DNA of 59,236 nucleotides from an uncultured Christensenella sp. (GCA_964368435.1 CAYJBS010000002.1:1-59236); one strand, 5' to 3'; shown: positions 561 to 50,199, numbered from the stretch's first letter. Program-made: numbers and translations. Notes: a model not told the origin generated them from the letters alone.

Positions 561-644
561 TCGGTTTTTTCCTCAAATTACAACAAAACAAATTAAGTTT
601 CATAACGAGCGATAGCCGAGGTATCTCATACTTGTGAAGTCAAC

Positions 645-669
645 AAAAGCTCCTATTACGGGAGCTTTT
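645..669. terminator. Bidirectional rho-independent terminator between convergent genes
   Basis: AAAAGCTCC-TATTACG-GGAGCTTTT. The GC core stem is 649-653/661-665, flanked by an A-tract and a T-tract. It lies 85 nt past the stop codons at 560 (+) and 754 (-). Confidence 0.6.
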
Positions 670-753
670 CGTTTTGTCAAAATAACAAATTATGTGTCAT
701 ACCGAATCAAGTCAGACAAAATTGCGCATAGCAAAATTTTTTGTTTGGCGGAA

Positions 754-7894: not shown

Positions 7895-9331
7895 TTATAG
7901 CGCGCTTATTCTGTCGGCGTCGGTCATCTTGCCCAGCAGAGTATCCTTCTGGGTTTCTGCGTCTCTTGCCTCGACTGCGTCAAGGTCCAAATAAAAAATG
8001 TTGTTGGTTATGGAGCTTTTGAAGAAATACAGCGTACCGTCAATGATTTCTGCACCTATCCATTGGGAGCTGAAAGCGCCGCTGTAGTACATCTCTGCGT
8101 TGCCCTCTACCTTGACCAAAGCGCCGTCTGTGACATCAAACAGCTTTATGTTATAGAGTTTGTCGCCCGATGTATAGTACATATAGTATGATGTGCCGGC
8201 ATCCTCGCTGACTAAATAAAAATCATAAGGAACCACAGTGGCGGAGAAGGTTATGGCGTTGTATTGGTATTCTCCGGCAAGGGTGTAGACATCGAGCTTC
8301 GAAACCGCCGTATCCGACGCATTGGTAGCCGCGCCAAATGCCAATACTTTGCCTTGCGCAAAATAAAAGTTCTTGTACTCAAAACCCTTCGTCGTCGTCG
8401 GGTTGCTGGTGAAACGAACAAGATTTGCGGTATTGAAGTTCAATCCTGCATCGTAAGTATACGAATACAGTCCTGCAGCAGGCTGATTTGTGCGACTGTC
8501 GGTGATGCTATAAAAAACCGTCAACTTGTCACCGTTATATTTTATTTCGATAATAGTCGGAGTAAGAGCGGCGTTTGAGCCTAGCATATCGGTGCTTATG
8601 ATGGCGGCATTCTTGTCGCCGTTTATTGCCATAGCGTATATGGTCTTCTTCGAGGTCTCTGCATCTGTCTTGGAATAAAAAACATAGTTGTCCATCGCGT
8701 TGGCATCGGCGGTGGGCTTTGTGAAGAAATACGCCGTGTCGACACCCTCGACTATGGTCTCTTCCTTGAACTTCTTGTTCGATAGGTCTATGCGGCATAT
8801 ATTCTGCTCAAATATGTAGACGAGTTTTTGTCCGGATATTTTGTAGGGTACCGAATGGTTCTTGAATTCGGCTACAACCTGAGTGCCGGTGCCGTCAACC
8901 TTTGTGCGCATGATGACCATTTCTGCCGTCTTGGCATTGCCTTCGCTGTCCTTGTCCACGCTTGTTGTGGAATAATAAATATAGTCATCAAAGATATAAA
9001 GTCCGCCAAAATTCTTTTCTGTGGAATAAACTTTTTTTGGCACTATCAAAGCAAAAGTATCTTTCAAGGGCTTGCGGTCGGCATTAAGCTCGACACGCGC
9101 TATGGCGCCTTTCAGGGTTTTGCCGAATTCGTTTTCGGCGGCTTCTTCTGCATAGCCGTTTATGAAGTAGAGATACTTGCCGTATGTGACTGCCAAACCG
9201 CCGTTCGAAGTGACGGTTTTGTCAGCATAATCGACAGCAACAGCGTCTTGCTTGAAATTCTCGACACAACCGGTCAATAAAAAAACACCCAAGCATAGGC
9301 ATATAATAATCAAAACAATCTTTTTGCTCAT
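7895..9331 (-). CDS. DUF5050-like (TolB-like beta-propeller) lipoprotein, 478 aa
   Basis: MSKKIVLIIICLCLGVFLLTGC is a signal peptide with an L-T-G-C lipobox. Recurring blade-like motifs: GKYLYFINGY, DDYIYYSTTS, QKLVYIFEQ, DNYVFYSKTD, YYMYYTSGDKLYNI, DGTLYFFKSS. The start at 9331 (GGAG RBS) is preferred over the ORF-track start at 9367, because the predicted -10 box (9368-9373) abuts 9367. Confidence 0.85.
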   Translation of the reverse strand: MSKKIVLIIICLCLGVFLLTGCVENFKQDAVAVDYADKTVTSNGGLAVTYGKYLYFINGYAEEAAENEFGKTLKGAIARVELNADRKPLKDTFALIVPKKVYSTEKNFGGLYIFDDYIYYSTTSVDKDSEGNAKTAEMVIMRTKVDGTGTQVVAEFKNHSVPYKISGQKLVYIFEQNICRIDLSNKKFKEETIVEGVDTAYFFTKPTADANAMDNYVFYSKTDAETSKKTIYAMAINGDKNAAIISTDMLGSNAALTPTIIEIKYNGDKLTVFYSITDSRTNQPAAGLYSYTYDAGLNFNTANLVRFTSNPTTTKGFEYKNFYFAQGKVLAFGAATNASDTAVSKLDVYTLAGEYQYNAITFSATVVPYDFYLVSEDAGTSYYMYYTSGDKLYNIKLFDVTDGALVKVEGNAEMYYSGAFSSQWIGAEIIDGTLYFFKSSITNNIFYLDLDAVEARDAETQKDTLLGKMTDADRISAL

Positions 9332-9367
9332 TGATAAATTACTCCGCGATAGAATTTGTGTTAACAT

Positions 9368-9435: not shown

Positions 9436-10209
9436 CTAAATCTCGATGTCATTTATGGAATTGAGTACCATATCGGGCTTGATATCCGATGCGTTCAGCA
9501 TTTCGATAGTTGTTTCGCCGGTAAGCACAAGAATACTCGTCATTTTGTTGTTCTTGCCAAAAAGTATGTCGGTATACAGCCTATCGCCCACCATCGCCAC
9601 CTTGCCCGGTTCTACATGACAATGGTCAAAAACAAATTCCGCCATCGGCGCATTGGGCTTGCCGATGACGACAGACGGCGTTCTGCCGTTGGTCTTCTCT
9701 ATAAGAGCCATAATGGCGCCCGTATCGGGCATGTTGCCGTACTCTGACGGACATACGAAGTCGGGATGCGTTGCGATAAACTCCCTGCCTTGCTCAAGCA
9801 GGATACATGCGTGAAAAAGCTTGTCGTAAGTCAATGAGGTGTCAAAACCCAGTACAACGATATCGCCGTCGTCCTTGATTTCTATGCCATAATCCCCCAT
9901 TTCTCTTTTGAGCTGATCGGTACCTAAAACATAAACCGATTTGTATGGACGGTATCTTGAAAGATATTGCGCCGTTGCCATACCCGAGGTGATGATCTGT
10001 TCGATCTTCGCCTTGTACCCCAGTCTATGTATCTTTTCCAGATAGTCATACTTGGATTTTGAGCTGTTGTTGGTGACAAAGCAAACCATTTTGCCTGCCG
10101 CCGTCAATCTGTTTAGGGTATCGATGGCGCCATCAAGAGGGATATCCCCCATATTTACGGTGCCGTCAAGATCGAAAAGAAATAAATCAATATCCTTGGT
10201 TTTCTTCAT
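9436..10209 (-). CDS. HAD-IIA family phosphatase (NagD/AraL/YutF-like)
   Basis: HAD motif I LFDLDGTV, motif II VTNNS, motif IV VGDRLYTDILFG. Length of 257 aa is typical. Overlaps the upstream gene by 23 nt. Confidence 0.9.
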   Translation of the reverse strand: MKKTKDIDLFLFDLDGTVNMGDIPLDGAIDTLNRLTAAGKMVCFVTNNSSKSKYDYLEKIHRLGYKAKIEQIITSGMATAQYLSRYRPYKSVYVLGTDQLKREMGDYGIEIKDDGDIVVLGFDTSLTYDKLFHACILLEQGREFIATHPDFVCPSEYGNMPDTGAIMALIEKTNGRTPSVVIGKPNAPMAEFVFDHCHVEPGKVAMVGDRLYTDILFGKNNKMTSILVLTGETTIEMLNASDIKPDMVLNSINDIEI

Positions 10210-11230
10210 AGTTTATCAGTCTTTCTATTACTCCTGTGTTATTTATTATATTTGTCAGTCCCTGTGCGCGCCTACTTTCTTCTATAATCATCGAAAAATG
10301 TCTTCCGATATCGATATCTTCGAGGCTGACGCCCAACGCTCGAAAGATTAAAGCGACGCTGTTCAACTCTTCTTTTGATAGCATATATGCGCTCATTTTT
10401 GCGCTTTGTTGCTTGAGCGCACGCTGCGCGTCAAGCTCGGCTGCAGTATGAGTCGCCGCTGGTATAAGCATATCATTAAAGTCCCACTTTGTAAAGATTA
10501 TCCCGACACTAAATAATAAATAAGCGATAACAAAACGGCTCGACAACGCTTCCGCCGCGGCGCGCTTGTTCCTAATGCGATAAACAACAGGCAAGCGGTC
10601 TTTGCCACTCAAATATTCAGCTCCCCCCTTCAGAAGATGCAACATTGTCGGCAAGAAAAAATCTTTATCCGCAGGCTTAACGATGAAATTTTTGCATTGT
10701 TTTACCATAGCTTCAAGCGCCGCATCCTTGTACGGCAGCAGTAGTCCGCTGCAAAAATCATCCAGTAAAGAATAATACATAACCAACGCTTCACAAAAGC
10801 CTTTAGCGGCAGTAAGGGTATCCGAAATGTCGATTATGGAACTATCAAAGTAGGCTATTTCTGCAAAACCGCTTTTTTCTCCGCTCAACATCCCATCACA
10901 AAAGCAGTCGGCAAAAATTTCTGTAGGATAGAACGAAAAGCGCATATCCCCGGCGGCTTTTCGGACTGCTCTTATTGCGTCAAGTCCGCCTACCGCTACA
11001 AAATACCTTATATGCTCGCCGAAATTCATTGTTCGCGCAGTGTGCGCTTCACACAGCTTTGTGCGGTTGCCTTTTTTGAACAGAGCGTCGGCTACACGGC
11101 AAGCAAGCTCTTTATGTTCTTGCTCGAAAATAACGGCGACTGCGCCGTTTTTATAAGTTACGGAAACGAGTTCGGCAAAAAGCTCTGTGTCTTTGCCTAT
11201 ATGCAGATTTGTGCGGGTACGGGTATTCAT
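10187..11230 (-). CDS. Hypothetical protein (347 aa); possibly a degenerate dehydroquinate-synthase / glycerol-1-phosphate-dehydrogenase-like (AraM-like) fold
   Basis: ORF with normal codon usage and a 23-nt overlap with the HAD gene. FVAVGGLDAIRAVRKAAG only loosely resembles the GGGSxxDxxK motif of Fe-ADH/DHQS-like enzymes. No obvious RBS. Confidence 0.65.
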   Translation of the reverse strand: MNTRTRTNLHIGKDTELFAELVSVTYKNGAVAVIFEQEHKELACRVADALFKKGNRTKLCEAHTARTMNFGEHIRYFVAVGGLDAIRAVRKAAGDMRFSFYPTEIFADCFCDGMLSGEKSGFAEIAYFDSSIIDISDTLTAAKGFCEALVMYYSLLDDFCSGLLLPYKDAALEAMVKQCKNFIVKPADKDFFLPTMLHLLKGGAEYLSGKDRLPVVYRIRNKRAAAEALSSRFVIAYLLFSVGIIFTKWDFNDMLIPAATHTAAELDAQRALKQQSAKMSAYMLSKEELNSVALIFRALGVSLEDIDIGRHFSMIIEESRRAQGLTNIINNTGVIERLINYEENQGY

Positions 11231-11291
11231 AGCAAAATTATAACCACAAAAAAGCGTAATAATACTGTATAAAATGCTGTTTTTTGGAAGC

Positions 11292-12341
11292 TTATGCCAA
11301 CAAGCTCTTCAACTCTTTCAGCAATACATCTATTTGGCTGTCGGTTCCTATGGTCACACGAATAAAATTGTTGATGCCCGGCTTGTCAAAATACCTGACA
11401 AGAATGCCTCTCTCTTTCAATTTCAAATAAACCTCTTTGGCATTGTCTAGTAGCACCAACAGGAAGTTGGAGCCGGATGCAAGCGTATTTATGCCGACCG
11501 CCTTTAATTCCGCAAAGACTCTTTCACGTGTGTTTATTATTTTCTTTATTATGGCGTCATAGTACGCCGTGTCGCTCAGCGCTGTTGCTGCTATTTCCAT
11601 ACTCAAGCGGTTTACGGTATAGCTGTTTATGCTGTCTTTTATGCGCTCCAGTGCTTTTATGAGTTGCTCATTGGCAAGCGCATAGCCGCACCTAATGCCG
11701 GCAAGTGCATGGCTCTTTGACAGCGTTTCGACAATCACAAGGTTGTCGTATTTCTCTATCAGCGGAGATACATCTTCCGAACAAAAAGCCGCATATGCTT
11801 GGTCAACAATGACTATTTTGTCAAGGTTTTGTTCAACAATTGCCTTGATTTCGTCAACGGACAGCGTAATGCCCGTGGGGGCGTTGGGGTTGGCGATGAC
11901 AATACCCCTGCAATTCAAACCGAAATAATCAGAGGCACAGATGGCATATTCCTTCAGCGGAATTATTTTCGAACGTAAGTTGTAATATGAGGCATAAACT
12001 TGATAAAAGCTGTAGGTTATGTCGGCATAAGCCACCTCGTCACCATTGTTAAAAAAAGCCGCGAAGCACATGGACAGCACCTCGTCACTGCCGTTGCCGG
12101 TAAAAATGTTTTCTTCGGAGGTCTTCTTTTGCTTTGCGATAGCTTGTTTGAGCGACAGCGTCCGAGGATCGGGATAAAGCCGCAAATCGGTAGCGTCAAA
12201 ATTTTTCAGCAGCTCGGCGACCTTAGGACTGGGCGGATAGGGATTCTCGTTGGTGTTGAGTTTTATGTAACGTTTGTCCCTGGGTTGCTCTCCTGCTATA
12301 TACGGTGATATGCTTTTGGCTAAATCCGAATAAAATTTCAT
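11292..12341 (-). CDS. hisC: Histidinol-phosphate aminotransferase
   Basis: N-terminus IAGEQPRDKRYIKLNTNENPYPPSPKV. PLP-Lys context ETLSKSHALAGIRCGYA. The 349-aa class-II aminotransferase length fits. GAGG RBS. Confidence 0.88.
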   Translation of the reverse strand: MKFYSDLAKSISPYIAGEQPRDKRYIKLNTNENPYPPSPKVAELLKNFDATDLRLYPDPRTLSLKQAIAKQKKTSEENIFTGNGSDEVLSMCFAAFFNNGDEVAYADITYSFYQVYASYYNLRSKIIPLKEYAICASDYFGLNCRGIVIANPNAPTGITLSVDEIKAIVEQNLDKIVIVDQAYAAFCSEDVSPLIEKYDNLVIVETLSKSHALAGIRCGYALANEQLIKALERIKDSINSYTVNRLSMEIAATALSDTAYYDAIIKKIINTRERVFAELKAVGINTLASGSNFLLVLLDNAKEVYLKLKERGILVRYFDKPGINNFIRVTIGTDSQIDVLLKELKSLLA

Positions 12342-12358
12342 TGTTATTACCTCGCCTC

Positions 12359-12388
12359 ATTTTAGCATAAACGCGAAAAATATGTCAA
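12359..12388 (-). promoter_or_regulatory. Sigma-A-type promoter of hisC with extended -10
   Basis: Minus strand TTGACA (12383-12388), 18 nt spacer, TGC-TAAAAT (-10 at 12359-12364). Confidence 0.5.
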
Positions 12389-12424
12389 CATAAAGCTGCC
12401 ATATTGCAAAAAAGCCTATTTAAA

Positions 12425-13513
12425 TCAGTTTTTTATATATAAAGAGGTTTTGGGTTTGCGCTTGGCAAGAATACCGCCGATAAAATCCTGCAAAAACGCC
12501 ATAACGGGTACGCTGAGAAAGACTCCGATGAAGCCGAACAGTCCACCACCCACCACCACTGAGGTGAGAATCCAAAAACTTGACAAGCCGACATACCTTC
12601 CGACAATGATGGGATAAGTCGTCACTGACTCTATCTGTTGCAAAATGACAATAAAAATTATGAAAATAAGCGCCTGCTCCGGACTTACGGAGAAAATCAG
12701 CAAGGCGGAGAAGCCGCCGCCGATATATGCGCCCACCATGGGAACGAGATTAACCAGCGCTGTTATGGCGGCAATGAGCGGAGCAAACGGCAAGCCTATT
12801 ATCGACATCACAAGATAACACACCATACCCAACAGCATAGCTTCAAGCAGCTGTCCGCCGATATAGCTTGAAAACTTATCTATGGCAAGTTGCAGCGCAT
12901 CCAGGATGTCCTTAACTTTTTCTTTTTTTGTTAGACTGTATATTAGTTTTTTGAACTGATGCGCCAACTCCTTTTTATTGGAAAGTATCAAAACAGCCAG
13001 GAAAAGTCCTAGAAACAGGTTGATGACGACTTTCAATATATTTTCGGCAAGCTCCAGCATCTTTGGTATATACTCTTGCAGTCGGTCGATAAAATCCGAA
13101 GTCACTTTTTGCAGGTTTTCAAAAACTAATCGGAAAAAAGCATTGTCTGATGAAAGTTTTTCAAAGGCATTGCCCGATTGAAAGGAGGAGGTGACACCGC
13201 CGATGCTTTCAACGAGTTTGGGAAAGACCAAAAACCCAAAACCCGTCAATATGCCTGCAAACAGTATGACGGCGCATGCCAGTGACAGCGGACTTTTGTA
13301 TTTTTTAAGCTTTTTGAAAACTTTCTTCTCGAAGAATTCCATAGGCACATGCAAAATAATTGCAAAAATCGCGCCGATAATGAGCGGCGTAAAGGCATTT
13401 TTTATCGTGCCGAACACATTCAGAAATTTGTCAAAATTCCATATCAATATGCCTGCAAGTGTAATAAGAACAAGCTTGTTTACAAACTCCTTTGAAACGC
13501 CCTTCATAGCCAT
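12425..13513 (-). CDS. AI-2E family transporter (PerM/YtvI-like integral membrane protein)
   Basis: 362 aa with about 8 hydrophobic helices. The C-terminal half (…ALVNLVPMVGAYIGGGFSALLIF…ILQQIESVTTYPIIVGR…) is typical of UPF0118/AI-2E. Confidence 0.88.
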   Translation of the reverse strand: MAMKGVSKEFVNKLVLITLAGILIWNFDKFLNVFGTIKNAFTPLIIGAIFAIILHVPMEFFEKKVFKKLKKYKSPLSLACAVILFAGILTGFGFLVFPKLVESIGGVTSSFQSGNAFEKLSSDNAFFRLVFENLQKVTSDFIDRLQEYIPKMLELAENILKVVINLFLGLFLAVLILSNKKELAHQFKKLIYSLTKKEKVKDILDALQLAIDKFSSYIGGQLLEAMLLGMVCYLVMSIIGLPFAPLIAAITALVNLVPMVGAYIGGGFSALLIFSVSPEQALIFIIFIVILQQIESVTTYPIIVGRYVGLSSFWILTSVVVGGGLFGFIGVFLSVPVMAFLQDFIGGILAKRKPKTSLYIKN

Positions 13514-16600: not shown

Positions 16601-19600
16601 ATCTTGTGTTGATGTCGGTGCCGTCATAGGTTATTTGGTCGAAGCGGTAGGTCGCTCTGTCTCCAAAGCGCTCATAATCCGCGCCGCTCACAAGTCTATC
16701 GCTGACGATTTCGTCATAGACAACGGAATGGCTGTAAATGTTGCCATCCTTTTCTACTATAGCTCCGTAAACATCAATATAATAGTTGTCGACATCGAGT
16801 CCTGAGTAGTAGGTCATATCCATAATTCTGGCTTCCATGGTATAGCCGTGGTCACCTATCTTTATGGATTTTATGTCGGATGCCGCCGTCGGTTCGTCTA
16901 TGGCGACTTTCAGGTCTACTACAACATCGCGTCCTGTATACAGATTTTTCGAAGAGGTGGCTACGCCTGTTCTCTTGTCAAATATCGTATAGTTCTTTGC
17001 TTCCAGCAAGAAATCGATGGAGCGGGGACCCGTAGCATAATCGTGGCCTTCCTCGTCTCTGTTGTTGAGCAATATCCTTGCGCGTCTGAAGTATGCGAAG
17101 GCGCCATCGGCGAATACCTCGCTGTATTTCTTCTCATAAGGATTTATTGGGATGACATCGTCTATTAACAAATATGACGGATCATATGTCCCGTTCGGCA
17201 TATTGGCTACCTTCACGAAGTCTTCGCCTTCGGTTTCATAGCTGACTTGATATTCGGTAATGGTTCTGTCATAGACCAGCACATCGACCTCTATGGATTG
17301 CAGTCCCGTCTTTATTTGCCGTACGGTCTCTACGCCGTCGATGAGGACGGTTTCGTTTTCATAGATGTAGATGGTGGCTATTGCGGCGTTCTGCTTCTCC
17401 TTGGTGTACGTGCCGCCTTTTACGGACATCGTATTGGAGATATGGCTGAACGACCAGTCCACATAGAGGATAATATCGTTGGCATTGTTTTTGAAGCGCG
17501 CTCTAAGCATCGTCGGCAGTCCCGTGAAGCCCTCGAAAGGCTCTATCAGCAGTCTCTTGATGCCGCCGCTCAAATCCTGCTCGATTCTTTGGAGATTGTA
17601 GTCGGCGTCGTAAGTTGTCACCTCTTGGGGCGTAAGCACTGCCAGACTTTGCAGCTGACTGGGTATGATCTGTACCGGCACATCAAAGGTCTGTTCTAGT
17701 TGGGTGCCCTTGGCTATCGTCGCCTGCACATAATAGATGCCGCCGAGATAATTGTAACGCAAGCGGGAAATGTCCCAATCTATTGCCAACTCTTCTTCAG
17801 CACCTGCGCTGAACAATACTGTCGCCGTATCATAGTCGCCGAAGTCTATCTTCTCATAGACACTGCCGACAATCAACGAATCAATGTTTTGGGCAATCAT
17901 TTCGCGCAGATAAACGCGCACTGTTTTTGTTTGGCGTACATCGAAGTTCTCTACGCCATAAGCCGTATCAAATTCAGTCGTTCTGCCGATACGGAAGCTT
18001 ATGTCATAAGCTTTCTCGAGGAAACCGTTTGCTTTGTAGTCAGCGAAGTTCAGCGGGTCGATTTTTACGTCGACGCCGAGTCCGCTTCTTACATCTGTAT
18101 TTACGATAAGATTGATATACGGAGCAAGCTGTTGTTCAAGAGAGACATACGGGAATATAGCAAGCTCGTCGGGAAGTTGCGCCAGAGGTATGGTGCCAAT
18201 CCTTATGATTTCGGGCAACAGAGAAATAGTAATTGTGTGATAAATATATCCGAAGATGCTGTTGCCTATCTTGGCGGTAGCTTGCGTCGAAGTGCTGAGG
18301 TTTGTGTATGGCTCAACATTTGTCCATACGACATCAAGCGGCAGTACCTCGCTGGCATTGTTCTTGACGAACTTGACTTTTGCGTAGGCAGGAAGCGGTA
18401 TGTTGTCATAAGTCTTGTAGACAAGCTGATCGAAATCAACTTCGTTTGTCAGTTCGCCTGCTTGTTCTGAAGCAAAGAACTTGATGTCCTTTCTGAGCTG
18501 CTCCATATCGTCGATGTAGGTATAAACTATCCTCGGGCTGGTGTTGACAACGTTTATGTCGAATTTCTGCAAATTCTTCAGTCTGTTGCCGACGGTGACA
18601 CCCTGCGGCAACGCAAAGCCTGCGCTGGCATAGAAGGTTTCGGAATACTCTCCCATCTCAAGTCTTGCATCAAGCAGCGCTCTGCCGCCTGCGGTGAAGT
18701 TGACGTACAGTTCTTGTATTTCGGTCATCTTGAAGGCATCATTGATATTCAATACGCCGTTCTGGAAGGTCCAAATGATTCCCAATGCCTCATCTTCCAC
18801 AGTCTTATCGGCAAGCAACTTTACGCCTGCGGATGTGGCAAATTGCGAAGCAAGCGAGCTTATGGTTCTGTTATGGATGTGCGCTTGCGGAACATTGACT
18901 ATGATTTCTTGGCGCCAGATGGCATTGGTTTCGTAGCCTTTGTTGCGGACAGTAAGTATTATGCTGTTCTCTCCGCTGCCATTGTAGCTGATACCGCCCT
19001 CGTTGGAATATCTCCATGCCGGAATGCCTTCATTGAGTTCAAACTCCCAATAATTTATGAAGCCTGCCTGCCTTGATTTGTTCCAAAGCCTTATGCCTCC
19101 CGACAGTAACAATCCAATATTGTCGTAGCCGTATTCGTCTTTGTAGTCGTCAAACTGCGCAAGATAGTCATCGATTGTCGTATCATCATACGGGTCTATC
19201 GTGACACTGTTGTCGGCTATGGCTATTCCCAAAATATCCAACTGTTGTATGGTTATTCTGACGTTTCTTATGATTTGGTTGCCGAATATCGGATCGGACA
19301 ACGCGGCGTCGGTATAGAATACCTTGCCTCTGAAGTTGTTGACAAGTTGCGCTTCGTCTATGTCAAGCCACTCTATCGGTACATTGTTTTGGGTGATACC
19401 GGAGAAGTTTATGACGGGACGGTTGGGAAGAACTATCGTCTCGTTGGGGGCGAACGACAAGTTGGTGGCAATGTTTGTCGCCACTCTTGCCGGCACATTC
19501 AGCGTAACTTCAAGCACCTCGTTATCGGTGGTATAATCGCTGTAATATTTGTCCCAAGACTTAATGGTCAACTGTCTGTTGTTCTCACCGACATTTGCGG

Positions 19601-22600
19601 CGGCGGTACGCTGATAAAGCCTATCCATTTCTGCCTTGTTTTCGGTAGAGTTGTCATAGTAGTCGTCCCATGCTGCAGCTTTCAGGTTTTCGTTGTCGGG
19701 GTCTTGCCTCTCGATGCTGTCGAGAATGCCGTTCATTATGTCTTTCTGATGTGTGTTTGCTGTCTCTCTGATCATGATATCCCACGCAACGGCTTTCAGC
19801 GAAAGTATCGGCGCGCCGGGGTTGTTGTCAAACACTCTCTTTCTCATGGCATCCAATTCTTTGCGGTACGAGTAGGCATAAAGAGTGTTCCAGGACTCAA
19901 CCTTGGCGTCGCTTATGCTCATGGTCGTATAACCCATCTGCTGCTTCATCAATCTGACATCCAAAGTCGATTGAGTTCTGGCATCCTGCTTGCCATACCA
20001 TACTGCCCACGCTTCTATCTTCGCCTGTCTTACGGTCAGGTTGTTCTGTATGCGAAGTTGTTCGACAAGCGTATTCATCGCCGAACGGTCTATTCTCATA
20101 CTATCCGAGTATAAGCCGTCCCAAGCGTTGACAATGCAAGTACCTTCATTGTATAAGGCGTTCATATTCGACAAGCGAATATCTGTCAGTTGCTCCGCCA
20201 ATTTGAACTTGGCAATCTCTCCGCCGACAAGCGCCTTTGCTTTGTAGATGCCGCCGTTGTAGGACATCAGCGGTATCATCCAGCTCAGCGTAGCTCCTTC
20301 AATAAGTGTAAAGCTTTGGATAATGCCTTCGTATTCCAGCGTAATGTTGCGTTGGGTATATTTTTCTGTGCCCGGAGCAAAGACCGACATAGTTCCGCCG
20401 GTGCCGTCACCGTAGTTTATGTTGAAGGTATCGGGCAGACCCAGTCTTTGAAGGATGGTCTTCTGCGCTCCGCCGGAGTAAATGTCATAAGGCACTACTT
20501 CTCTTGCGGTGTTCAGATCGCTGCCGATAATTTCTTTGGAGCGAATCTCGACGAGTATCTTGACGGTTTGAATGAAGCCAATCTTGTCAACCAGTTTGTA
20601 GGTTACGGAATATATCCTGCGGCTCAAATCCGAAGAGTCGTAAGAACTCAGCCTGCCGTCGGCTCCATTGAGGTCAACAAAGCTGCCCGACATGACTCTC
20701 CAATCGTTGATGGGCAAGCCCTCGGAAGTGCTGACGTTCATGTGGGTTATGTTCTTCATCACGGTATAGGGGTCTTTGCAGTCAAACGGACTGAATTGTA
20801 CTACGCCGTCATAGCCGTTGTGGGCGGCATTGCCCGCATCTGCGGCTTCTATGCCGTTCATGGACAGCTCAAGTCCACTATTTACTGTTTCCTCGCCTAA
20901 TGCGTGGGCTGATGCCGTAACGGTAGTTATGCTTCTGTCAATAATGTTGAGCGACACCTTGACTCTTGCTGCCTGCACCGGCGCGCCGGTGTAGGAATAA
21001 GTCAGCCATACATATGGCGTCTCATCTGTGTCGTACATCAGTGACGGATAAGTCTTTATGCCGTCTACTATCTTTTTGTCAAAAGACCAACTCAACTCAT
21101 TGAAGAAATAAGTCTTTTGTTTGTCGCCTTGCTGATATTCATACTTAAACATTTTGGGCAAGGTCGCCAAATATTCGTGTTCGTTAAAGGTGTCTGGGTC
21201 GATGTCTTCCATATCCAGGAATTGAATGTTGTCGGCGCCGGGGATTATGTTGAAGGGCTCGACAACAACTTTTACGTTGCTGTAAGTCAAATTCAGCGCA
21301 TATCCGGGCAATATCACTGCGTCTTGTAAGCTTATGCCTGCCGGATCGATCTTCACGGCGCTAATATCCCAAAGCATGGCTATGCCCTGCGATCCACGGG
21401 AATGTCCGTCTACAAAGCTTGCCATATTTCTGTCGGGCAGAGCGTCAAATATTGTGAAGGTCGGATCATAGTTGCGTCTCGAACCGGAGACTGCGCCCGA
21501 TGAACCCACCCAAGAGCCGCCGAACATTGTGAAGTCTGTAAGGTCGTACGGATCGTGGAAGGTGATCTGGGACGGCGGAACCATTACGGTATGAGTAAAC
21601 TCATTTGTTCCTGTGTCATGCTCAACTTTGACGAATTCCGAACCCATTGTGCTGAGGACTCTGAAGTTCAATCCGGTGTTGTTTATGTCGATTTCTTGAT
21701 AGGTGTCCTCTTTCGGGTTGGTTTCGTCGTCATAAACGTAGGTTTGGTTATAAACATATTCTTTGCCGTCTCCATCGATGGCATAATCCACGATGACCAA
21801 GTAAGAATTGACGTTGTTTCGACGTGTCCATTCGTTCATAGCCGTCTGCGCCGCAGTTTGAGGAACTCCGGCAATGATTGTTTTTCGCTCCTTCATTTCT
21901 CGGCTTCTGATATCATAGTTTACGCCTGCAGGATTCAAGTTGCCATTGCCAAAGTCTGCTACTCTGCCGGTATACTCCCAATAGCCGTCTATCCAGTCGC
22001 CTTGCTTCGTGCGATCGTCCTCTTCCATATAATTGCTATCTTCGGGAAGCTTGACGGTTTCGTTGCGGAATGAAGCGCTGTTCAGGAACAGTGTGATTCT
22101 GTCTGCTAATACATCCGCAGTGGCGTCCAGCGTGATTTTTGCGTATACGGACAAGTCAAAATACTTGACGTCACGCCGCAAGTTTTTGCCGCCATCGACG
22201 CGCTTGCCTTCGGTAAGCACGCCGTTTTTGTAATAGGTATTCAGCGGACTGCCGTTCAAATCCATTGTGTCATACATATTGTATGCCAAATTGAATGGCA
22301 CTGCGTGCGCAAGCAGGTTCGAGGCATCTTGCAATATGTCGTGCAATTGGTTGAATACAAGCACAATAAGCTGCTTCAATCCATTGAGTAGCAAGCTGAT
22401 AAGGCCGCCAACATAAGGTATATAGCTCGACACCGCAGCAAAGGGTCCGATAATCGCGTCGCCGACAAGTCCCGGATTGTTTATGCCGACTGCAATAAGG
22501 TCGATTAAGCCTATTCTTTCGCCTCCCAGTGAGAAACTGGCGTTTCTAAGGTAAGATTGCAGCACAGTTGCAATGGCAAAGTGAATGAAGCCGCCAGGCA

Positions 22601-25600
22601 ACTTGGCTAGCGCGCTGTTCAACGCTTGATAGAAGGCGCCCTTGCTTGCATACATCGGATCATAAATATTGGAGTCGTCCTCGTTGAAGGTGCCAAGGAA
22701 AACATTGTATTTGTCCTCGTCAACAGGGTTGCCGTCGCTATCCTCTTCGCGGTTAAATGAACCTGTTGAGGTATCGATAGGAAGAATTCTCTTGGTTTTG
22801 CTTATGTTGCTCATGTTGATCATATTGAACAACAATCCCTGCACCGTCATGAGCAAGTCATTCAGCATGGCTGAATCGGGCCAAATCTCAATATAGGTAT
22901 AGTCATTGTAGAGATCGCCGCCGCCGCCTTCATAAATAAGGTTGCCCATATCTGCATCATAGTCGCTGTACGGCTCGCCGTCATCGTTCCATGCTTCGTT
23001 GTCGACATTGTCGGCATTGTTGTGTTCGTCTCCGTCCTTGACGTCTGCGCCCAATCTGATGCGTATCTTTTGGAGCAACGAGGGCAGAATAGCCTCTTCG
23101 GTGTCGGGTTGAAGGAATTTCACAACCGGCTCATTGTCGTACCAGTGGAAAGGACGCTTCGAGAGTTCTATGGTGCCGATATCTTTGACATAGTTCGCCG
23201 ACGCCGCTTGTTCCTCTGTTATTGTGAAAGTGAAATTTCTGTTGTTGTAAACAGGGGAGCGCACTTTTATGGTATAGGTGCCGGTGGTAAGCAAAGGCAA
23301 CGATTTTTCAAGGTCTGTGGTGTCGCCATAGCTTTCCAATCTGAAAGAGCCGTCATAGCCTATTTTTCCTGCAGCAAAGTTTATGGGCTGTATGTCATAA
23401 TAAGCCTTTGTGCCAAGAGTAGGACTGCCGTCTATCTTTATCCAAATCTCAATATTAGGTAAGTCGTCTTCGGTGGTTTCTTCAACAATGGGCATGCCGT
23501 TGCCGTCCACAAGGCTACCGATAATTGTCAAATAAACAATTTCGCCGGTGGGTTCCAGTTCAAAGTTGCGGGTATATGTCTGGACAGAATCCGGATTAGT
23601 ATAGATGCTGTCTAACGTCAAAGCACCTTCTTCGTATCCGCCCGCCAAAGCTTTTATGGTGTGGGTCGCCGAGGTATTTCCTGCCGCGCCCAAATCGTAT
23701 ACCTTGAACGTAAGGCTATAATTGCCGTTTGCATCTGCGGTGACGCCTTCGCTGTTGTTGTAGTTTACGTAAGTGTAAGGCAACTTCTTTCCGACTTTGT
23801 TTTTTACGACACCCGAGACGGTAACTGTGGCATATTCGACAGTCGATACCATGAAATCAAGCCTTTGCGCCGAGGAAACTTCTTTCGGCGAAACAATGAT
23901 TTCTTTCTTGACATGAGTGCCATAACTTATCTTTGGATGTTCAGCCTTGATTTCATATCCCATCTCGACATCATAATAAAACGTTCCGCGTAATACATAA
24001 CGCTTGCCGGCATAGGTATAGAATCCCTCTTCATCCGGCGACATCGTATTGAGCACTTCAATTATGGCCTTGTCATTGCCGTCATCGCCGTCATCGTCGT
24101 TTTCTTCATCCAACGCTTCGGGACAAGGTATATTCAGGAAGAAATACCAGCCTTCTTTGTTGGTGTAAGCTGTAAGGATATTCTCGTTGGTTTCGTCCGG
24201 GGTGCCTATCGTGATTTTCATGCCCTCGACACCTTCGTTATCTTCTCCCGGAGCAGTTACACGGCCATAAAGTCTGCCTGTGTTGCCGGCGGGTATAATG
24301 ATTTGTCCGGTCTCTTCATCGATGATATCTTCCTCTTCAGGAGGATCGATCAGCGTTCTGGGATACAGTGCAATCGGCAGAAGTATGCCCTTGTTTTCAA
24401 AACTGTTGGCGCCGGTCAAACCTGAAAGCAAAGAGTTGCCCCACTTCGCCAAAGGAATGGAGATGTTGACAACGGGTATCTTTATGTTAAATTGAGAGCC
24501 GAGTTGTAACAATATTCTGTGCTTTTCAAGATAAACATTCGTCGAACCGGTGTTCCAGGTCAGCGTTTGGATGGCTATTTCGATGGCGTTGCCTACGGTC
24601 TTGGTGAGCCGCAGTTTGCCTCGTTTGTAGCGGTTGCGATAGAATATCGGTTCTTTGGTTTCGGTATCAACGCCGGAAACGATGTCACCGATGGCGTCAC
24701 CGAAGTTGCCTGCTTTTGCAAGCGTGGCAAGCGCTTTCAGCACATTCAAAGTGGCAAGCATAGCTTGCTGTGAATCCGTCAGCACGCCGTTATAGCCCGC
24801 ATCATCGTCGGGATAATACACCGGTCCAGTCGGGGTGTTTGCGTAAGGCTCATCGCCGCCCTTCGAACCCATTTGTCCCGGGGGATAAATCGTATATAAA
24901 TCCTTTCTTTCCCAATAATCAGTTCTCTTGTCAAGGAAAACCTCAAGATTATAGAGCTTTATGCCGTCCAATACGCTGTCAAGCAACGCAATGGTTTCTA
25001 TGTTGAAACCGTTTTGGCTGTTGAACATCAGACCGCTGAGTCCGCCGTATTTTGTCAGCTGGAATGCCGACGGCACTTTTACGGTGTTGGGGTTGAAGGA
25101 AATGGTCAGACCGCCTCTGGGCACCGTAAGGTTGACGCTGTTGCCCAGATTGTCTACTTTCAAGTTCATCGAAAGGTTGTTTATGCCTTCCGCTACATTC
25201 ATCGACATTCTTATGTCGGCAAAGTCCGGCAACATCATTCCAAGTAATGAGTTAAGCACGGCGGTATTAGGATTCAATATAAGCTCTTGATTGCTGAGCA
25301 ACAGAGCAAGCGTCGGCACTTCCTTTGTTACTTCGATTGTCTGCGCCGCTTCTTCTATCCATTTTGCGTAGAGAGTAGTGGCTTTTATGATTGCCAACGG
25401 GAAAGTCTCTTTCAGCGTACTGAAATCGGGGGTGATATACCAGCCTTTGAATACATAATCATCTCTCACCGGAACAGGTTCGGAATCCAAAATAGAAACA
25501 GTAACGCTGTCCATATGTTCTCCGCCGTTTGTGTTGAAGGTGACGGGGAACTTCGGCTGGGTGTCCTCTGCCCACTTCGCATAGAGCGTTGTGGCATATC

Positions 25601-28600
25601 TCACCGTGAACGGGAAAGCAGCTTTCAAACCGTAGAAGTTTTCGCTTTCGTACCAACCTTCAAAGACATAGCCTTCTCTCGTTGTTTCGGGAGATGACGC
25701 TATTTTTGTGGCGGTAAGACTTTCGACAGCCTTGCCCTCGTTTGTTACGAAGGTCACCAAATAACCCTCTTCGTCCTCAATGAACTCTTCTTCTCCGCTG
25801 CCCGTCAAAAGGCTGTTCATCAATTCGATGACATTTATGCCCTCTTCGGGGGTAACAAGCGGCTCCGAGAACAGACCGGACAACAGTCCGAGTATGTCTA
25901 TGCCTGTAAGCGAAACTTTGAAAAGTCCAAGCTTCGATAAGTCGGCATAAATCTTGTTGGTAGCGCCAATGAAATACAGCGACAGCAAGGGATTCTCGTT
26001 GTAGCGTATTACGAAGGCGACATTTGTTTTTGTGGGGTCTGCAAAGCTGATGACTGCGCCTAAGGTTATGCCGAAGGTCATCACGGAGTCTTGCATATCA
26101 AAGACCACTCCGCCCTCTTCCATTCCTACCAGCCCTTCAATGAGTCTTTCGAGGGCAATGATGGCATCGGATTTCGGGAAACCGGGTTTCTCCGAACGAG
26201 TTTTTATGCGTAGTTCCGCTTCGAGATTCAACGCAACAGTATCGATAACATTTATGTCTTCATATTCGTTGTCACGCGCTTCCTGAGCAGGATCTATGAT
26301 GTCCATCTCTTCATAAATGAAGTCGACGTCGCGCATCATGGATTGGCTCTTCTCAAAGCTGTAATTTATTTTGAAGGATTTGTATTCGTCAAGCACCAGC
26401 ATAATGCCTGCCAAATCGTCCTTTTCGGAATATCCTATCTTCAACGAATCGAATACCGGTATATCCAAAATTATATCAGGCACACCGCCTTTGGTGACAT
26501 TGTTGAGGTTCTCTAAAAGTGCTGTCAGCAATCCGCCCGTAATGGCAAGGCTGACTTCTTTTGAGTGTCCGACAAACAACAGCATGTTTGCGCCGAAAGG
26601 CATATCTTTTATATCCGGATACAGTCTTGCCAGAGCTTCCGCCTGCGCAAGGCTGTTGCCTTCGTCACCGTTCATCGGGGCAGACTTCGGCTCTTCGTCA
26701 ACGGCAAACATGCCATTGAGCATATCCTTGACTATTGCGCCGAGGTTCAGCGCCGTTGTCTTAATCGCGGGCAATGCTATACCGTTCAAATCGACATAAA
26801 TATCGCCTTGGATATCCGAACCGACATAAGCTATCATCATCTTGCGTTGTCCGTCTTGTAATATCTCGAGTTGCAGTCTGAGGTCGCTCAAGTTGGCGAA
26901 GGAAACGAATGTGGACAGTTTGAAGTCAAACTTTATGTTGAGTTCTTCCGCCGCTTGCAGCTGCAACTGCATTCCCAATAAAGGCATCGTAAGTTCCGAC
27001 AGGTCGAACAGCGCGCATAGATCGTCATTTACTTTCAGCGAGCTATTGATTTCCGTTGCCCAGGCATAGCTGTTCAGCGTTTCGAAATCCGAGAAGTCGA
27101 CTGCTGCGAAGAAATTCTCGTTCGGACCAAGTCTGGCATTTACTTTGCTGATGCCCATCGAAAGGTTAAGTTTCGAGGGTACAACCGTGTTGCCTTCTTC
27201 GTCTCTTATGCCTGCGTCAATAGGTATGGTCAACTTCAGCGTGTTGTCCAGATTATTGAGTTCAAGTTTTATGTCGCCTACCTCATCAAAAGGCAGGTTG
27301 AACAAGTCGGTAATAATGCTTGCAATAGCCGAAGGCATCGCAACAAGAGCAAAGGTGCCCTTGCCTATAGATAAACTCTCGAACAGATTGCCGATTTTTA
27401 TGCCCAGCACTTCCGGACCTGCTTGTTCTTCGTCGGCTTCGTCAGCGTTTTGGATGGCAGAAGGCATGCCCGTTTCGGTTGCTATTTCGTCGGTCTTAAT
27501 GAGGAAATTCTTCAAGAGTTCTGCATCTATGCCCGAGAAGATAGCTGCCGCCTCGACATCAATCTTGATTTTCGGGATACCTAAAAGCGAAGATTCGATA
27601 TACAATCTCGGGTCTAGCTCGCCGCGGGTGATATAACCGCCTTCGAAATAAACTTTCAAGATTACTTCGCCGTCTTCATTTACCATTTCGCCGATTACGT
27701 CAAGCGCGCCTATGCCGCCCTGCAAGTCTATATCGACCTGAAGGTTCAGCGTAATAAGCCCTTGCACTGCTTCAAGTATTCTGATTTGGAAAATAGTCGG
27801 CAGTTCTTGCACGCTGAACAGCGTGCTCCAGTCAAGAATATGTTTGATGAAATCAGCTTCAAGAGTCAGCGACACGCCTATCGTGAATCTGGTCATTACT
27901 TCATTTATGACGAAGCATTGCGCAAACAAATCGGCGTATTCTTCGGTGGTATATTTGTTGTAGAAGTTGTTGTAGGTGGCGTCATCTATTGCTATGACGG
28001 TGTCGTGGAGCATGGAGAATTCAAGCATATAGCCGACAGTCTCGCTGCCCTCTTCTCTCTTCTTCTCCAGCACAAGCCCTACATTGAAGTCGTCGTCATA
28101 GTTTACTCCCAGTTTGCCTCCCGTAAAGATCTTGTCGACAATGGTGAGCAGTTCGTCGCTTATGTCCGGACCAAGGAAAAGTTTCATGACTTCGGTCATG
28201 AGTTCAGAGGTCAACACAAGTCCTGCCTCTTGAGAATTTATTCTGATGAGCGCTTGCAACAAGCTTGATGCCATCACTTCGTCGGCATTGTTGGCGGAAT
28301 AAAGAGCCTCGAAGGGATTTTGTACGCTTTCGCCTATAGATTCTTTGTACTCTCTATAGCCGGGTATCGAATCATACACTGCATTGGACAGCGGATTCAG
28401 CGTCACTTCCTCGTCGCTCATTCCCATCATATTGAGTAGCAGTCTTGAAATATACATCTCGGGCATATGCAGGTTCAGCGCGCTGTCAAAAATCTCGCCT
28501 TGCAGATATATGTCACTGCCGATCAACCATGCATCGATTATGACTTGCTGGAATTCCTCTGAGGAACCCTCGTTCTCATAGTCGAGGATATAATATTTCA

Positions 28601-31600
28601 GCATAATTTCGGCTCTTATGGCATCGTCTATGTCAGTCAAATCTTCTGAAAGCAATTTCGAGAAATCAATGCCTACAAGCCCCGTCAATTCGACATACAG
28701 GGAATGCTCTTCCAAGAACCTGACTGCGCTCTCAATACCGCCGATTGCGGGGAACAGCGCAAGAATATCGTTTATGCCCAATACGCCTTCTTCCAAAGCT
28801 ATTTCCAAGCTGGCATTGAGTTCGAAATACACCTTAAGTTCGTCATAAGGCTTATATTCTTCTTTCTGCGCCTTTGACAACAGTTCGGGAATGGTGGATG
28901 CCCAGTCACCTGTTATGGGATCGATATATTTTGTTTCGTTGGCAAGTTTCAAATCGATTTCTTCGCCAAGCAAAGCAAGTCCAAGCGAAATGTTTGCAAG
29001 ATGGTTGTTCTTTGTGGCAGCTTCGGCATATAGCGTGTCAAAAGTAGCCACGATGTTCTCGAGACTGCTGAGTCTTGTAAGCATCTCTTGAACGGCGCTA
29101 GAAGATCTGTGCGTAGCAAGATTGCGCCATGCGTCTACTTTTCTTAAGTAAGCATATTGATATACATTTCCGGCAAGCGCGGCATACTCGGCGTTCATTT
29201 CCTGAACTTCCGCGGTATAGCTAAGCGTTTGATAAAGCTGCAACATATAATCCCAAGCCTGAGCCTGAAGGATGCCGTCCATCAAATTTACTCTGTCTAT
29301 TGTAATGGAATAAATTCTCCACCAATCCCATGCCGAGGCTTTTGCTTCGCTGGCCGTGCCCAGTTGCTCGGCTTGCAGCGCATCCATTTCGTCCAGCGTC
29401 ACATTGATGTCTTGAATCTCGACATTAATGTTGTTTATGGTGGCTAAGAGGGTATTCCTTTGGCGCAACAGCTGTGCAAGAAGTGTTTGATCTGTTGTGC
29501 CGCTTATTTGGTTGTTGAGATTTTGAAGGTCAAGGTATAGACCTGTTGCAGGAGCCTGTGTGCCAAGCTGCGTTGCAAGCGCGGCTATTCTCTGTTGTTC
29601 GTAGGTCCTCAAAGCGTCCCACGCATTTGCGCGGACGATGATATCACTGTTGGCTAGCTGAGCCTCGATGAATTGAAGGTCTGTTTCTTCAAAGGTGGCG
29701 GCATGATCGGTCATTATTCTCAACCAGCCCAACGCCTTCTTGTCTTTCTCGGTAAAGAGATTTCCTTTGATTTCCCTTTCGAGAATGTTCTGCATCATAG
29801 TATTGATGACAACATGCGCGGGATTCAGCGCATTCAGCGTTTCGGCATATTGTCTCCAAGCCTCTGTTTTCTGTCTTGCTGCATTCCAAGCAGGGAAGCT
29901 TGCGCCGACTGCCAGCAGAATTGATTCCATCGAAATCTTCTCGGACTCGCTCAACGAAGTCTTCTTATAGAGTATGTCCCACGCTTCGCTGTACTTCGCT
30001 TCATTGCCCAATGCTTCAAAAACACTGTCAAGAGTCTGGACTTGTAAAGAATTGCCCAGTTCCCTCATTCTGTTCCACGCCAACATTCTGGCGGTGACCT
30101 CGTCATCATATAGCAACGCTTCCATGAGTGTCGCTGTGGCGGTTTGGCGAGCGGCAACTAATTTGTCCCAAGCCAATGCCAATTTCTTTGTGTGAGTATA
30201 TAGCGGATGTCTTTCGTTGACCCAATCCAACATCTCGTCCATCTCTGCGATCTCGTCGGGAGATGCCAAGCTCTGCTGATATATGAATCTCCAAGCCTCT
30301 GCTTTCTCGTATTCTCTCAATCTGAGAAGATCTGCGGTGTTCAAATCGTTCTTCCACTCTTCCCAAGCCTCTTGTTTGTTGCCGTCGGCTCTCTCAAGCA
30401 GCATATTGAGATAAATAAGGTCTCCGCTGTCATATTCGGAGGATTCCAGATTTATGTCAATCTTCAGTTCGACATGCTTGTCTACTCCGACCTCTACATT
30501 GGGTTCTATTATGCCGCCGATATATTGGTCGACATCTATGCCCAGCATCTTGAGCACTGATTTTATCATGCCCGAAACCAACCTGATAGTCAGTCCTTTT
30601 TGTTCGTCAAGGGCAATCTTCACCATCGCCATTGTTCTTTCCATCTGTTGATCAAGCGTCAACTCGGTAGGATCGGCATTAAACAGCGATTGATAATGCA
30701 TAAGATTGCTGTAATAATCGGCATTCTCGGTATCGTTCGAATCATCTTCAGCGAGGGTACCGCCGCCCAGCACGGTAAAGATATCCATGACGCCACGCAC
30801 TTCTATCTTTTCCAGTCCGATATTGCTGGCATCGATGAATAAGTCGCCTTTTATGTAGGTCAGCAACATTTCGAAACTTCTGTTGGCGGTATAGATATCC
30901 ACCATAACTTGCAAATCTTCAAGTATGTTGAGCATACCTACGGTGACCTTGACATCAAAGTACAATGTGTCGCCCATGTCCTCTTCAAGCGCCAATATAG
31001 GAGCCAGCGCTCTCGAGAAGGGATTTATGTCGCCGATAAGCAATTCGAGCAATTTTGTAAAATCATAAATACCGCTTTCGTCTGCAAGCGTCAACTTGAA
31101 TTGCGTACTCAACGAAAGACTGTTTATGTTTTGGAGCAAATGATAATTTATTTTTTGCGGGCTGATAAGAGTCACTGTATCCCATTTTTCGAAATTCAGC
31201 CTGATGCCGTTTATGGAAATACCCAGCGCCAGAATTTTGTCCATTTCGGTTTCGCTTATATATCTGTCACCCATGGCGATCTCGACACCGATAGTCATAC
31301 TCTTGTTTTCGGGTATGGCGTATATCTTGGCGTGAAGTTCGTTGAATATTTCGAAGTTGTTTAGGTTAAACATCGAAAGCAGCGCTTCGATAGAGGTTCT
31401 CTTGGCAAGTACGAAAAGTCCCTGCTCTCTCAACAAAGCTTCAATGGTCAGCTTGTTGGCAAATGCGCCGCTGGCGTGGAAGAGGTTTTGTTCGGCGGAT
31501 ACCGCTGCTTGCGGCGCTGCCGTCGCTGCCTCTCCGAAGAGCATATCGGTGACATTCTCGATATAGATTCTGTCGCCGCCGATGTCTCTTATGTCTATAA

Positions 31601-46933: not shown

Positions 46934-46946
46934 AATATTCTCCATG

Positions 46947-50141: not shown

Positions 50142-50170
50142 GTCGCTCCAATAAAAATTATCGTATATAT

Positions 50171-50199
50171 ATAATAAAACTTTTAACAACTCTTGTCAA
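50171..50199 (-). promoter_or_regulatory. Sigma-A-type promoter of the transglutaminase-like / PIG-L operon
   Basis: Minus strand TTGACA (50194-50199), 17 nt spacer, TATTAT (50171-50176), about 30 nt upstream of the ATG at 50141. Confidence 0.5.

Follow-up and report, generated by a model that had tools for sequence, protein, structure and literature searches.

The question raised by this locus is whether a regular repeat of about 38 residues, encoded in DNA from an uncultured Christensenella sp., belongs to one of the known helical repeat families, and what role it might serve in the protein that carries it. The stretch of DNA analysed (GCA_964368435.1 CAYJBS010000002.1:1-59236; its full length of 59,236 nucleotides is called the window herein) had been read in a first-pass annotation, which drew attention to positions 19530-20147, described a Trp-led and apparently helical repeat there, and could place it in no family. 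We find that the repeat is genuine and that it constitutes one family across six clusters, all of which are housed in a single giant open reading frame (ORF) whose product is 9,296 amino acids in length. We propose the name "AW repeat" for these units. As set out below, the AW repeat is a new, lineage-restricted sequence family of a familiar structural kind.

The giant ORF spans 27.9 kb of the minus strand (13644-41534), as established from the ORF list and by translation, and the interval 19530-20147 reads without a stop codon and in frame with it. All AW repeats lie on this strand, where they are organised as six arrays of 2 to ~12 units each, with a unit of ~38 residues (range 31-44). The array that had first been noticed is the most C-terminal of the six (cluster 6; residues 7130-7343, 19506-20147). 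Six consecutive units had been proposed there, with Trp at residues 7138, 7176, 7215, 7251, 7289, and 7327 (spacings 38, 39, 36, 38, and 38) and with unit starts NAWDGLY, EAWAVWY, ESWNTLY, VAWDIMI, AAWDDYY, and KSWDKYY. Translation reproduces every one of these positions and motifs, and reveals one additional Trp in the cluster, at residue 7179. The count of units needs an amendment: five are full, and the sixth is merely a half unit in which a canonical first helix is followed by a beta-rich domain. In order, these are unit 1 (W7138; CIVNAWDGLYSDSMRIDRSAMNTLVEQLRIQNNLTVRQ; 20025-20138), unit 2 (W7176; 19908-20024), unit 3 (W7215; 19800-19907), unit 4 (W7251; 19686-19799), unit 5 (W7289; 19572-19685), which is the most canonical, and the half unit 6 (W7327; 19506-19571). 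The lysine reported shortly ahead of each Trp also holds as a tendency of the family, with K or R at position W-4 in 17 of the 30 units of an alignment (A1) that is the basis of our unit profile and position statistics.

The five further clusters are located where the first-pass annotation had placed them, and they share the start K-A-x-A-W-[DN]-x-[LM]-Y. Cluster 1 (residues 1090-1510, 37005-38267) has ~8 Trp-anchored starts with irregular spacing, cluster 2 (residues 1655-1750, 36285-36572) and cluster 3 (residues 2060-2125, 35160-35357) have two units each, cluster 4 (residues 2510-2850, 32985-34007) has ~9 units, and cluster 5 (residues 3715-4150, 29085-30392) has ~12. Taken together, ~33 Trp-anchored starts exist beyond cluster 6, and ~20-24 of these are full units carrying both of the conserved elements described below.

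Several observations establish that the clusters are related. First, Ala or Ser precedes 39 of the 114 Trp residues of the protein, compared with an expectation of 13.7% (binomial p = 2.4e-8). Second, when a hidden Markov model (HMM) is trained on the N-terminal clusters alone, it detects five of the six cluster 6 units, and none of 20 shuffles of the C-terminal half of the protein reached 3 bits with the same model. The converse profile, made from the six units of cluster 6, detects units in clusters 1-5. Third, phmmer aligns residues 2636-2693 of cluster 4, the nearest paralog of cluster 6, with residues 7279-7336 of cluster 6 at E = 1.7e-7. There is no DNA-level tandem repeat at the unit period (~114 nt), which argues that the units are old and diverged, and that they have been maintained.

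Two conserved elements define each unit. In the first, L-K-A-x-A-W-[DN]-x-[LMY]-Y, the unit profile gives probabilities of 0.93 for W, 0.71 for A(-1), 0.44 for L(+3), and 0.45 for Y(+4). The second element, absent from the earlier description, is [ML]-[DN]-x-[LI]-[YFLV]-x-x-[LIV] and begins 14-17 residues past the Trp. Residues suited to capping the N terminus of a helix (S, T, D, or N) occupy position W-9 in 63% of the 30 units, and the hydrophobic positions that follow are -5, -1, 0, +3, and +4, with an occupancy of 93% at W+3 and 73% at W+4. Beyond these comes a polar loop and then a cap rich in S and T, directly ahead of the second element, whose hydrophobic stripe runs i, i+3, i+4, i+7 and after which Pro and Gly are enriched ~12 residues later. 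Position statistics of this sort are the mark of a pair of amphipathic helices connected through short loops. We also considered whether the two helices might have arisen by internal duplication of one ~19-residue motif, and rejected this idea given a position-specific scoring matrix z of 1.3 relative to within-unit shuffles and scattered offsets.

Structure prediction agrees with this picture. No homologs were usable for a structure-prediction alignment, and therefore an alignment of paralogs (A2) was assembled from non-overlapping multi-unit segments of different clusters together with an ortholog from a metagenome-assembled genome (MAG). Uniform coverage of 3-6 units was not obtained with such alignments; MAFFT places the majority of rows on whichever unit is most canonical, which in cluster 6 is unit 5. 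When A2 was supplied, AlphaFold modelled residues 7207-7319 with a mean predicted local distance difference test score (pLDDT) of 82.1 and a predicted template modelling score (pTM) of 0.66, and with a pLDDT of 92-97 over the units of W7251 and W7289, where 11-13 alignment rows are present. In the first of these units, helix A comprises residues 7242-7257 and helix B residues 7261-7277 (pLDDT 93-97). In the second, helix A comprises residues 7284-7295 and helix B residues 7300-7316 (pLDDT 92-95, dropping to 79 at the end). These helix limits coincide with those expected from the N-cap, the Pro/Gly enrichment, and the hydrophobic stripes. Thus, the helical character suggested by the first-pass annotation is upheld by the model of two units and by the statistics of 30, and the AW unit is a helix-loop-helix hairpin, with a helix A of 12-16 residues that carries the Trp and a helix B of 17 residues. 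In Kajava's classification, class III comprises the solenoid-type repeats. The alignment, the statistics, and the model all present tandem two-helix units with equivalent conserved core positions, as is characteristic of the alpha-solenoids of that class. Regular stacking of the hairpins into an elongated alpha-solenoid with a Trp ladder, as the first-pass annotation envisaged, would be a further, putative feature, and no solved solenoid resembled the model.

The same annotation had stated that the unit resembles no known repeat family, and a broader set of comparisons leads to the same conclusion. No Pfam model matches four of the real clusters at E<=10, and no NCBIfam model matches the clusters at E<=1. 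Sequence and profile searches of the PDB with the AW repeat were empty. A Foldseek search of the PDB (350,542 chains) and of BFVD with the predicted structure gave nothing at E<=0.001; the best match had E = 1.4, template modelling (TM) scores were no higher than 0.42, and no solenoid was listed. Comparisons directed at individual families, including profile-profile alignment with TPR, are given where those families are weighed below.

The AW repeat appears to be restricted to a single family of giant proteins in Christensenellales-like Clostridia. An hmmsearch of 1.84 billion representative proteins with the unit profile, a search that the first-pass annotation had proposed for other Clostridia and gut MAG proteomes, returned four matches at E<=1e-3. 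Two of these (P0002 and P0003) are short fragments orthologous to clusters 4 and 5, the former covering two units of cluster 4. The top match (P0001) is a eukaryotic Ig-like repeat protein and is spurious, being drawn in solely by the string KTVAWSRLN, which it repeats 12 times. The remaining match, P0004, is weak and is taken up below with the OPR family. Two longer orthologs came from other scans. A word-indexed search with residues 2500-4150 found a 2,832-residue partial protein (P0005) with 81% identity, which takes up the whole of an 8.5-kb contig in a MAG labelled "Clostridia bacterium." In a scan of GTDB genomes, the giant gene turned up in a Christensenellales MAG (L005), on a contig of 228 kb, and its product there is 82% identical over residues 3687-9296. 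The 1.84-billion-protein library did not return P0005, which has ~10 units, and is therefore incomplete for this family, so that the absences recorded in it give a lower bound on the distribution. Word-indexed searches of 5.8 billion proteins with residues 7029-7395 and with A2 gave nothing, and negatives of this index carry little weight because the A2 query missed P0005, segments of which are contained in A2 itself. A scan of JGI metagenome contigs with a further alignment (A3) yielded no relatives.

These orthologs also indicate how the repeat has been maintained. All six Trp residues of cluster 6 and the Ala or Ser that precedes each are retained in L005, with 93% identity at A(-1), and the two proteins differ by no insertion or deletion on the scale of a unit. 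In cluster 5, all Trp residues are kept in P0005, and in P0003 as far as the fragment extends, so that three species agree. The ratio of nonsynonymous to synonymous substitution rates (dN/dS) is 0.12 in cluster 6, 0.06 in cluster 5, 0.05-0.08 in the beta-rich parts, and 0.075 over the compared part overall, although dS is saturated and these ratios are rough. On these estimates, the AW repeat is under purifying selection. At the protein level, dN is ~0.20 in the helical clusters versus 0.09-0.13 in the beta-rich modules, which is an approximately twofold difference.

What kind of protein carries these arrays? A bacterial lipobox follows the rule [LVI][ASTVI][GAS]C. The N-terminal signal peptide of the giant protein (MKPKLTKLILLLLCIIMAFALISC; 41463-41534, minus strand) contains such a lipobox, MKPKLTKLILLLLCIIMAFALIS-C24 (...FALIS-C24), as judged by the consensus rule, and the product is thus predicted to be a membrane-anchored lipoprotein. 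Two Listeria-Bacteroides domains (Flg_new / List_Bact_rpt) are present at residues ~5258-5394 (25353-25751, minus strand; Pfam E = 1.1e-18; NCBIfam TIGR02543). These are the sole confident Pfam family in the 9,296 residues and lie outside the AW repeat. The ~3,900 residues beyond them, among which cluster 6 falls, give only weak CarboxypepD_reg-like and Big_4-like signals. Surface proteins typically contain domains of these three kinds. For more than 90% of its length, the giant protein is without a Pfam, NCBIfam, or PDB relative, and phmmer searches of both protein halves against all PDB sequences were empty.

A second, larger repeat fills much of the N-terminal half. Residues ~640-5250 (window 25800-39600, minus strand) hold at least 12 copies of a beta-rich module of ~270-450 residues, marked by the motif Y-[LIV]-D-[LATM]-[SE]..[LF][GN] (core Y-[LIV]-D-[LA]-S) at residues 761, 1069, 1780, 2141, 2410, 3044, 3311, 3565, 4342, 4644, ~4914, and 5195. 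The copies recognise one another in internal phmmer comparisons with E down to 1e-11, but none has a relative in Pfam, NCBIfam, or the PDB. AW arrays alternate with these copies along the chain.

The explanation that we favor by a modest balance of probability is that the AW repeat is a lineage-restricted helical-hairpin repeat whose arrays act as semi-rigid spacers in a surface lipoprotein. In this account, helix A begins with an S/T/D N-cap at W-9 and continues through L(-5), K(-4), A(-3), A(-1), W(0), D/N(+1), L/M/Y(+3), and Y(+4). A short loop rich in S, T, and N leads into helix B (~17 residues), which carries [ML]-[DN]-x-[LI]-[YF]-x-x-[LIV] and ends near a Pro/Gly-rich turn. The Trp, the adjacent Ala, and the Leu and Tyr one turn on in helix A probably pack onto the hydrophobic stripe of helix B, and these residues together would form both the core of the hairpin and the contact between neighbouring hairpins. 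Arrays of 2 to ~12 such units sit between the beta-rich modules of a ~1-MDa protein that would be lipid-anchored by its N terminus on the cell surface of a Christensenellales bacterium, and most likely serve as semi-rigid helical spacers or rods that set the spacing and the reach of the beta-rich, adhesin-like domains.

The data presented above show the repeat with its two conserved elements, its helix-loop-helix secondary structure, its conservation under purifying selection, its lack of a match to any known family, and its narrow taxonomic range. We infer the core role of the Trp, the stacking of hairpin on hairpin, the surface location, and the spacer function from the hydrophobic pattern, from the rule that tandem units whose conserved core positions are equivalent take up equivalent structures, from the faster evolution of the arrays, and from the precedent of Giant1-3 of Apilactobacillus kunkeei, in which the rods of giant surface proteins are stiff arrays of alpha-helical repeats (PMC12863079). 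The faster protein-level change of the helical clusters is more in keeping with a scaffold or spacer than with a site of specific binding. The surface context is supported by the lipobox, by the surface-type domains, and by neighbouring genes that encode secreted proteins or lipoproteins (see below). The resemblance to these and to the FIVAR-GA modules of Ebh/Embp, giant surface proteins of Gram-positive bacteria, is one of working principle: in all of them, imperfect helical repeats give stiff, elongated segments in extracellular proteins of 3,000-10,000 residues (PMC12863079; for Embp, PMC9302970). However, the repeats of those proteins have lengths of 62-366 residues and account for most of the chain, whereas AW units are of 38 residues and occur in short arrays of 2-12 amid beta-rich modules. 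In addition, those proteins have a C-terminal cell-wall anchor, and the anchor of the AW host is an N-terminal lipobox. No sequence relationship of the AW repeat to the Giant1-3 or Ebh/Embp modules was detected.

Several points weigh against the spacer proposal. AlphaFold run on the single sequence of residues 7115-7355 gave a pLDDT of 41 and an unusable model. Even with A2, the unit of W7215, covered by one alignment row, was modelled as a single long helix (pLDDT 64-71) and was disregarded, and adequate alignment depth (11-13 rows) is found in two units only. Moreover, the rows of A2 are all paralogs or close orthologs, and the confidence of the model might partly mirror the consensus helix pattern. 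For a canonical solenoid, the absence of a solenoid-like neighbour in Foldseek is neutral to slightly negative; the method is insensitive for short all-helical models. The surface exposure, the rigidity, and the function of the arrays are proposed from sequence. Finally, the conserved aromatic residues, if exposed, could form a binding surface.

A bolder version of the proposal, which we regard as unlikely, would make the AW repeat a structurally new helical repeat, with a hairpin geometry and a Trp ladder unlike those of TPR, SLR (Sel1-like repeat), and HEAT proteins. In that case, the repeat would be diagnostic of an unrecognised, ~1-MDa "dark" lipoprotein family in Christensenellales, and its arrays might work as rulers, elastic or rigid, by which adhesive beta modules are positioned, possibly when these gut bacteria aggregate cell to cell.

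Among the competing explanations, one that seems doubtful is that the clusters each form an antiparallel bundle of helices, either compact or rod-like, of the spectrin, FIVAR, GA, or death-domain-like type, rather than a solenoid of equivalent hairpins. The pTM of 0.66 obtained for the 113-residue fragment suggests a defined and possibly compact packing, and the top Foldseek neighbours, none of them significant, are coiled coils, RbcX, plectin spectrin repeats, Protein A repeat modules, and a death domain. However, those PDB matches all have E>1 and TM<=0.36. No significant Pfam match to spectrin was obtained, and FIVAR, GA, and DUF1542, the helical modules of giant staphylococcal and streptococcal adhesins, are matched neither in the 9,296 residues at E<=0.01 nor in the clusters at E<=10. 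The periodicity is also difficult to reconcile with such a bundle, given that each period spans two helices and the conserved core positions recur from unit to unit, while a three-helix bundle would give a three-helix period. A two-helix period with recurring core positions argues that the units experience equivalent environments, as in class III solenoid-type repeats.

A second alternative, which we consider improbable, is that AW units are highly divergent members of the TPR/Sel1-like group that form the canonical right-handed alpha-alpha superhelix and escape existing profiles. The likeness is considerable. TPR and SLR proteins are also built from tandem helix-turn-helix units, of 34 and 36-44 residues, respectively, compared with two-helix AW units of 31-44 residues. 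They have a Trp early in helix A between small residues, a Leu three residues on, and commonly a Pro after helix B; in AW units the frequent Pro past helix B is reminiscent of TPR position 32. The AW start A-E/x-A-W-x-x-L likewise resembles the designed TPR consensus AEAWYNLG. The TPR consensus is W4-L7-G8-Y11-A20-F24-A27-P32. When AW units are set against it, the W and the L(+3) fit; however, the equivalent of Gly8, where TPR and SLR units place Gly or Ala for helix packing, is Tyr in 16 of the 30 units, and helix B, [ML]-[DN]-x-[LI]-[YF] in AW units, departs from the A20/F24/A27 pattern. The modal AW unit is 38 residues (36-39 in cluster 6) rather than the 34 of TPR, and although the 36-44 residues of SLR are compatible, no Sel1 match is obtained at E<=10.

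Profile and fold comparisons point the same way. No match to the TPR clan (CL0020) is obtained from the arrays at E<=10, including two further arrays examined at that threshold, nor do Sel1 or HAT models match them. The same holds for HEAT and ARM models, whose units are of 37-47 residues. An idealised array of six consensus copies also recovers no TPR, Sel1, HEAT, HAT, or ARM model. The matches that this artificial array does give (TSP9, DUF5805, eRF1_2, and others) arise by chance and are magnified because the same copy is present six times, and none is a repeat family. Alignment of the unit profile with the designed TPR consensus CTPR3 by hhalign pairs only three columns ("EAW") at a probability of 0.5%. 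Foldseek returned no TPR or Sel1 structure from the 350,542 PDB chains and no HEAT or ARM structure, so that profile, profile-profile, and fold comparisons all fail to join the AW repeat to these families. The context differs as well, as AW repeats are found in a giant extracellular lipoprotein.

The octotricopeptide repeat (OPR) family of organellar RNA-binding proteins was also compared because of its unit length and its conserved Trp motif. OPR units are predicted to be paired helices. The OPR is degenerate, has 38 residues, and is recognised by the motif LWALAR or PPPEW (PMC5541062). The AW motif is instead A-W-D-x-L-Y. Furthermore, the OPR proteins of algae and plants bind RNA in organellar or intracellular settings and are rich in Ala, Gly, and Pro, whereas the AW host is a bacterial surface lipoprotein with a lipobox signal peptide and surface-type domains. 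The 508-residue protein P0004, a putative OPR-like protein, has five near-identical 38-residue repeats, QAIWNALYGLQNLDSSVVTKELIHALTTKINQSNAxLNG, with no Pfam match. It was rejected as a distant relative of the AW repeat, given that hhalign with the unit profile reaches only 6.8% and nothing is shared in Pfam. The C-terminal segment of this protein resembles what we take to be a RAP or Vsr-like nuclease motif.

A third alternative, to which we assign a low probability, is that the arrays bind a ligand (protein, glycan, or cell wall) through repeated sites made of exposed Trp, Tyr, and Asp, as in choline-binding and other aromatic-rich repeats. Helical solenoids commonly bind ligands, the protein is adhesin-like, and the Trp, the Tyr at i+4, and the Asp or Asn at i+1 are invariant or nearly so. 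However, the Trp falls within the hydrophobic stripe (-5, -1, 0, +3, +4) with small Ala residues at its flanks, which is the signature of a buried helix-helix interface, and evolution is faster in the helical clusters than elsewhere in the protein. Pfam and NCBIfam likewise reveal no resemblance to a known binding repeat. Ligand binding would be compatible with a structural role as well. The last alternative, that the pattern is a chance or compositional artefact of a long ORF, could appeal to weak conservation outside the A-W-D-x-L-Y start (mean column identity of 17% in A1) and to cross-cluster HMM scores of just 1.4-5.5 bits, but it deserves practically no credence and is refuted by the residue bias before Trp, the shuffles, the self-alignment, the retention of the repeat under purifying selection in orthologs, and the confident helical-hairpin model.

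The spacer proposal gains further context from the genes near the giant ORF. Two adjacent paralogs of ~1,100 residues each (43445-46945 and 46947-50189, minus strand; E = 9e-49 to one another) both encode a transglutaminase-core domain and a lipoprotein-like N terminus, with a Big_2 domain in addition in one of them. The giant gene and these two paralogs make up a surface-protein island. On the other side, a 490-residue ORF (7895-9367, minus strand) has a lipobox-like N terminus (LLTGC) and no Pfam family, and a 2,020-residue ORF (754-6816, minus strand) has an N-terminal signal or transmembrane segment and no Pfam family. The latter contains no AW repeats and has no detectable similarity to the giant protein, and none of the other ORFs of the window carries the repeat. 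The genes immediately downstream of the giant gene (9436-13513) encode an AI-2E transporter, a class I/II aminotransferase, a 347-residue protein of unknown function, and a HAD hydrolase. The same four genes follow the giant gene in L005 (L005:16904-20982), with 66-93% identity, which places the window in Christensenellales. For a neighbouring housekeeping gene, the only matches are short read-archive contigs. A blastn search against a phage collection gave no match, which argues that the region is not phage DNA.

The AW repeat family is covered by none of the curated libraries searched, and the alignment of 30 units could serve to construct a model in the style of Pfam. Such a model would improve the annotation of MAG proteins that are now labelled "InlB B-repeat-containing protein, partial." If it is true that the arrays form a new solenoid geometry, then they would be an addition to the natural helical repeat scaffolds; otherwise, they would represent an ordinary lineage-specific helical linker. 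In either case, the giant lipoprotein as a whole is a more interesting object than the AW repeat itself: a predicted lipoprotein of 9,296 residues that is conserved and held under purifying selection, and yet is nearly without recognisable domains.

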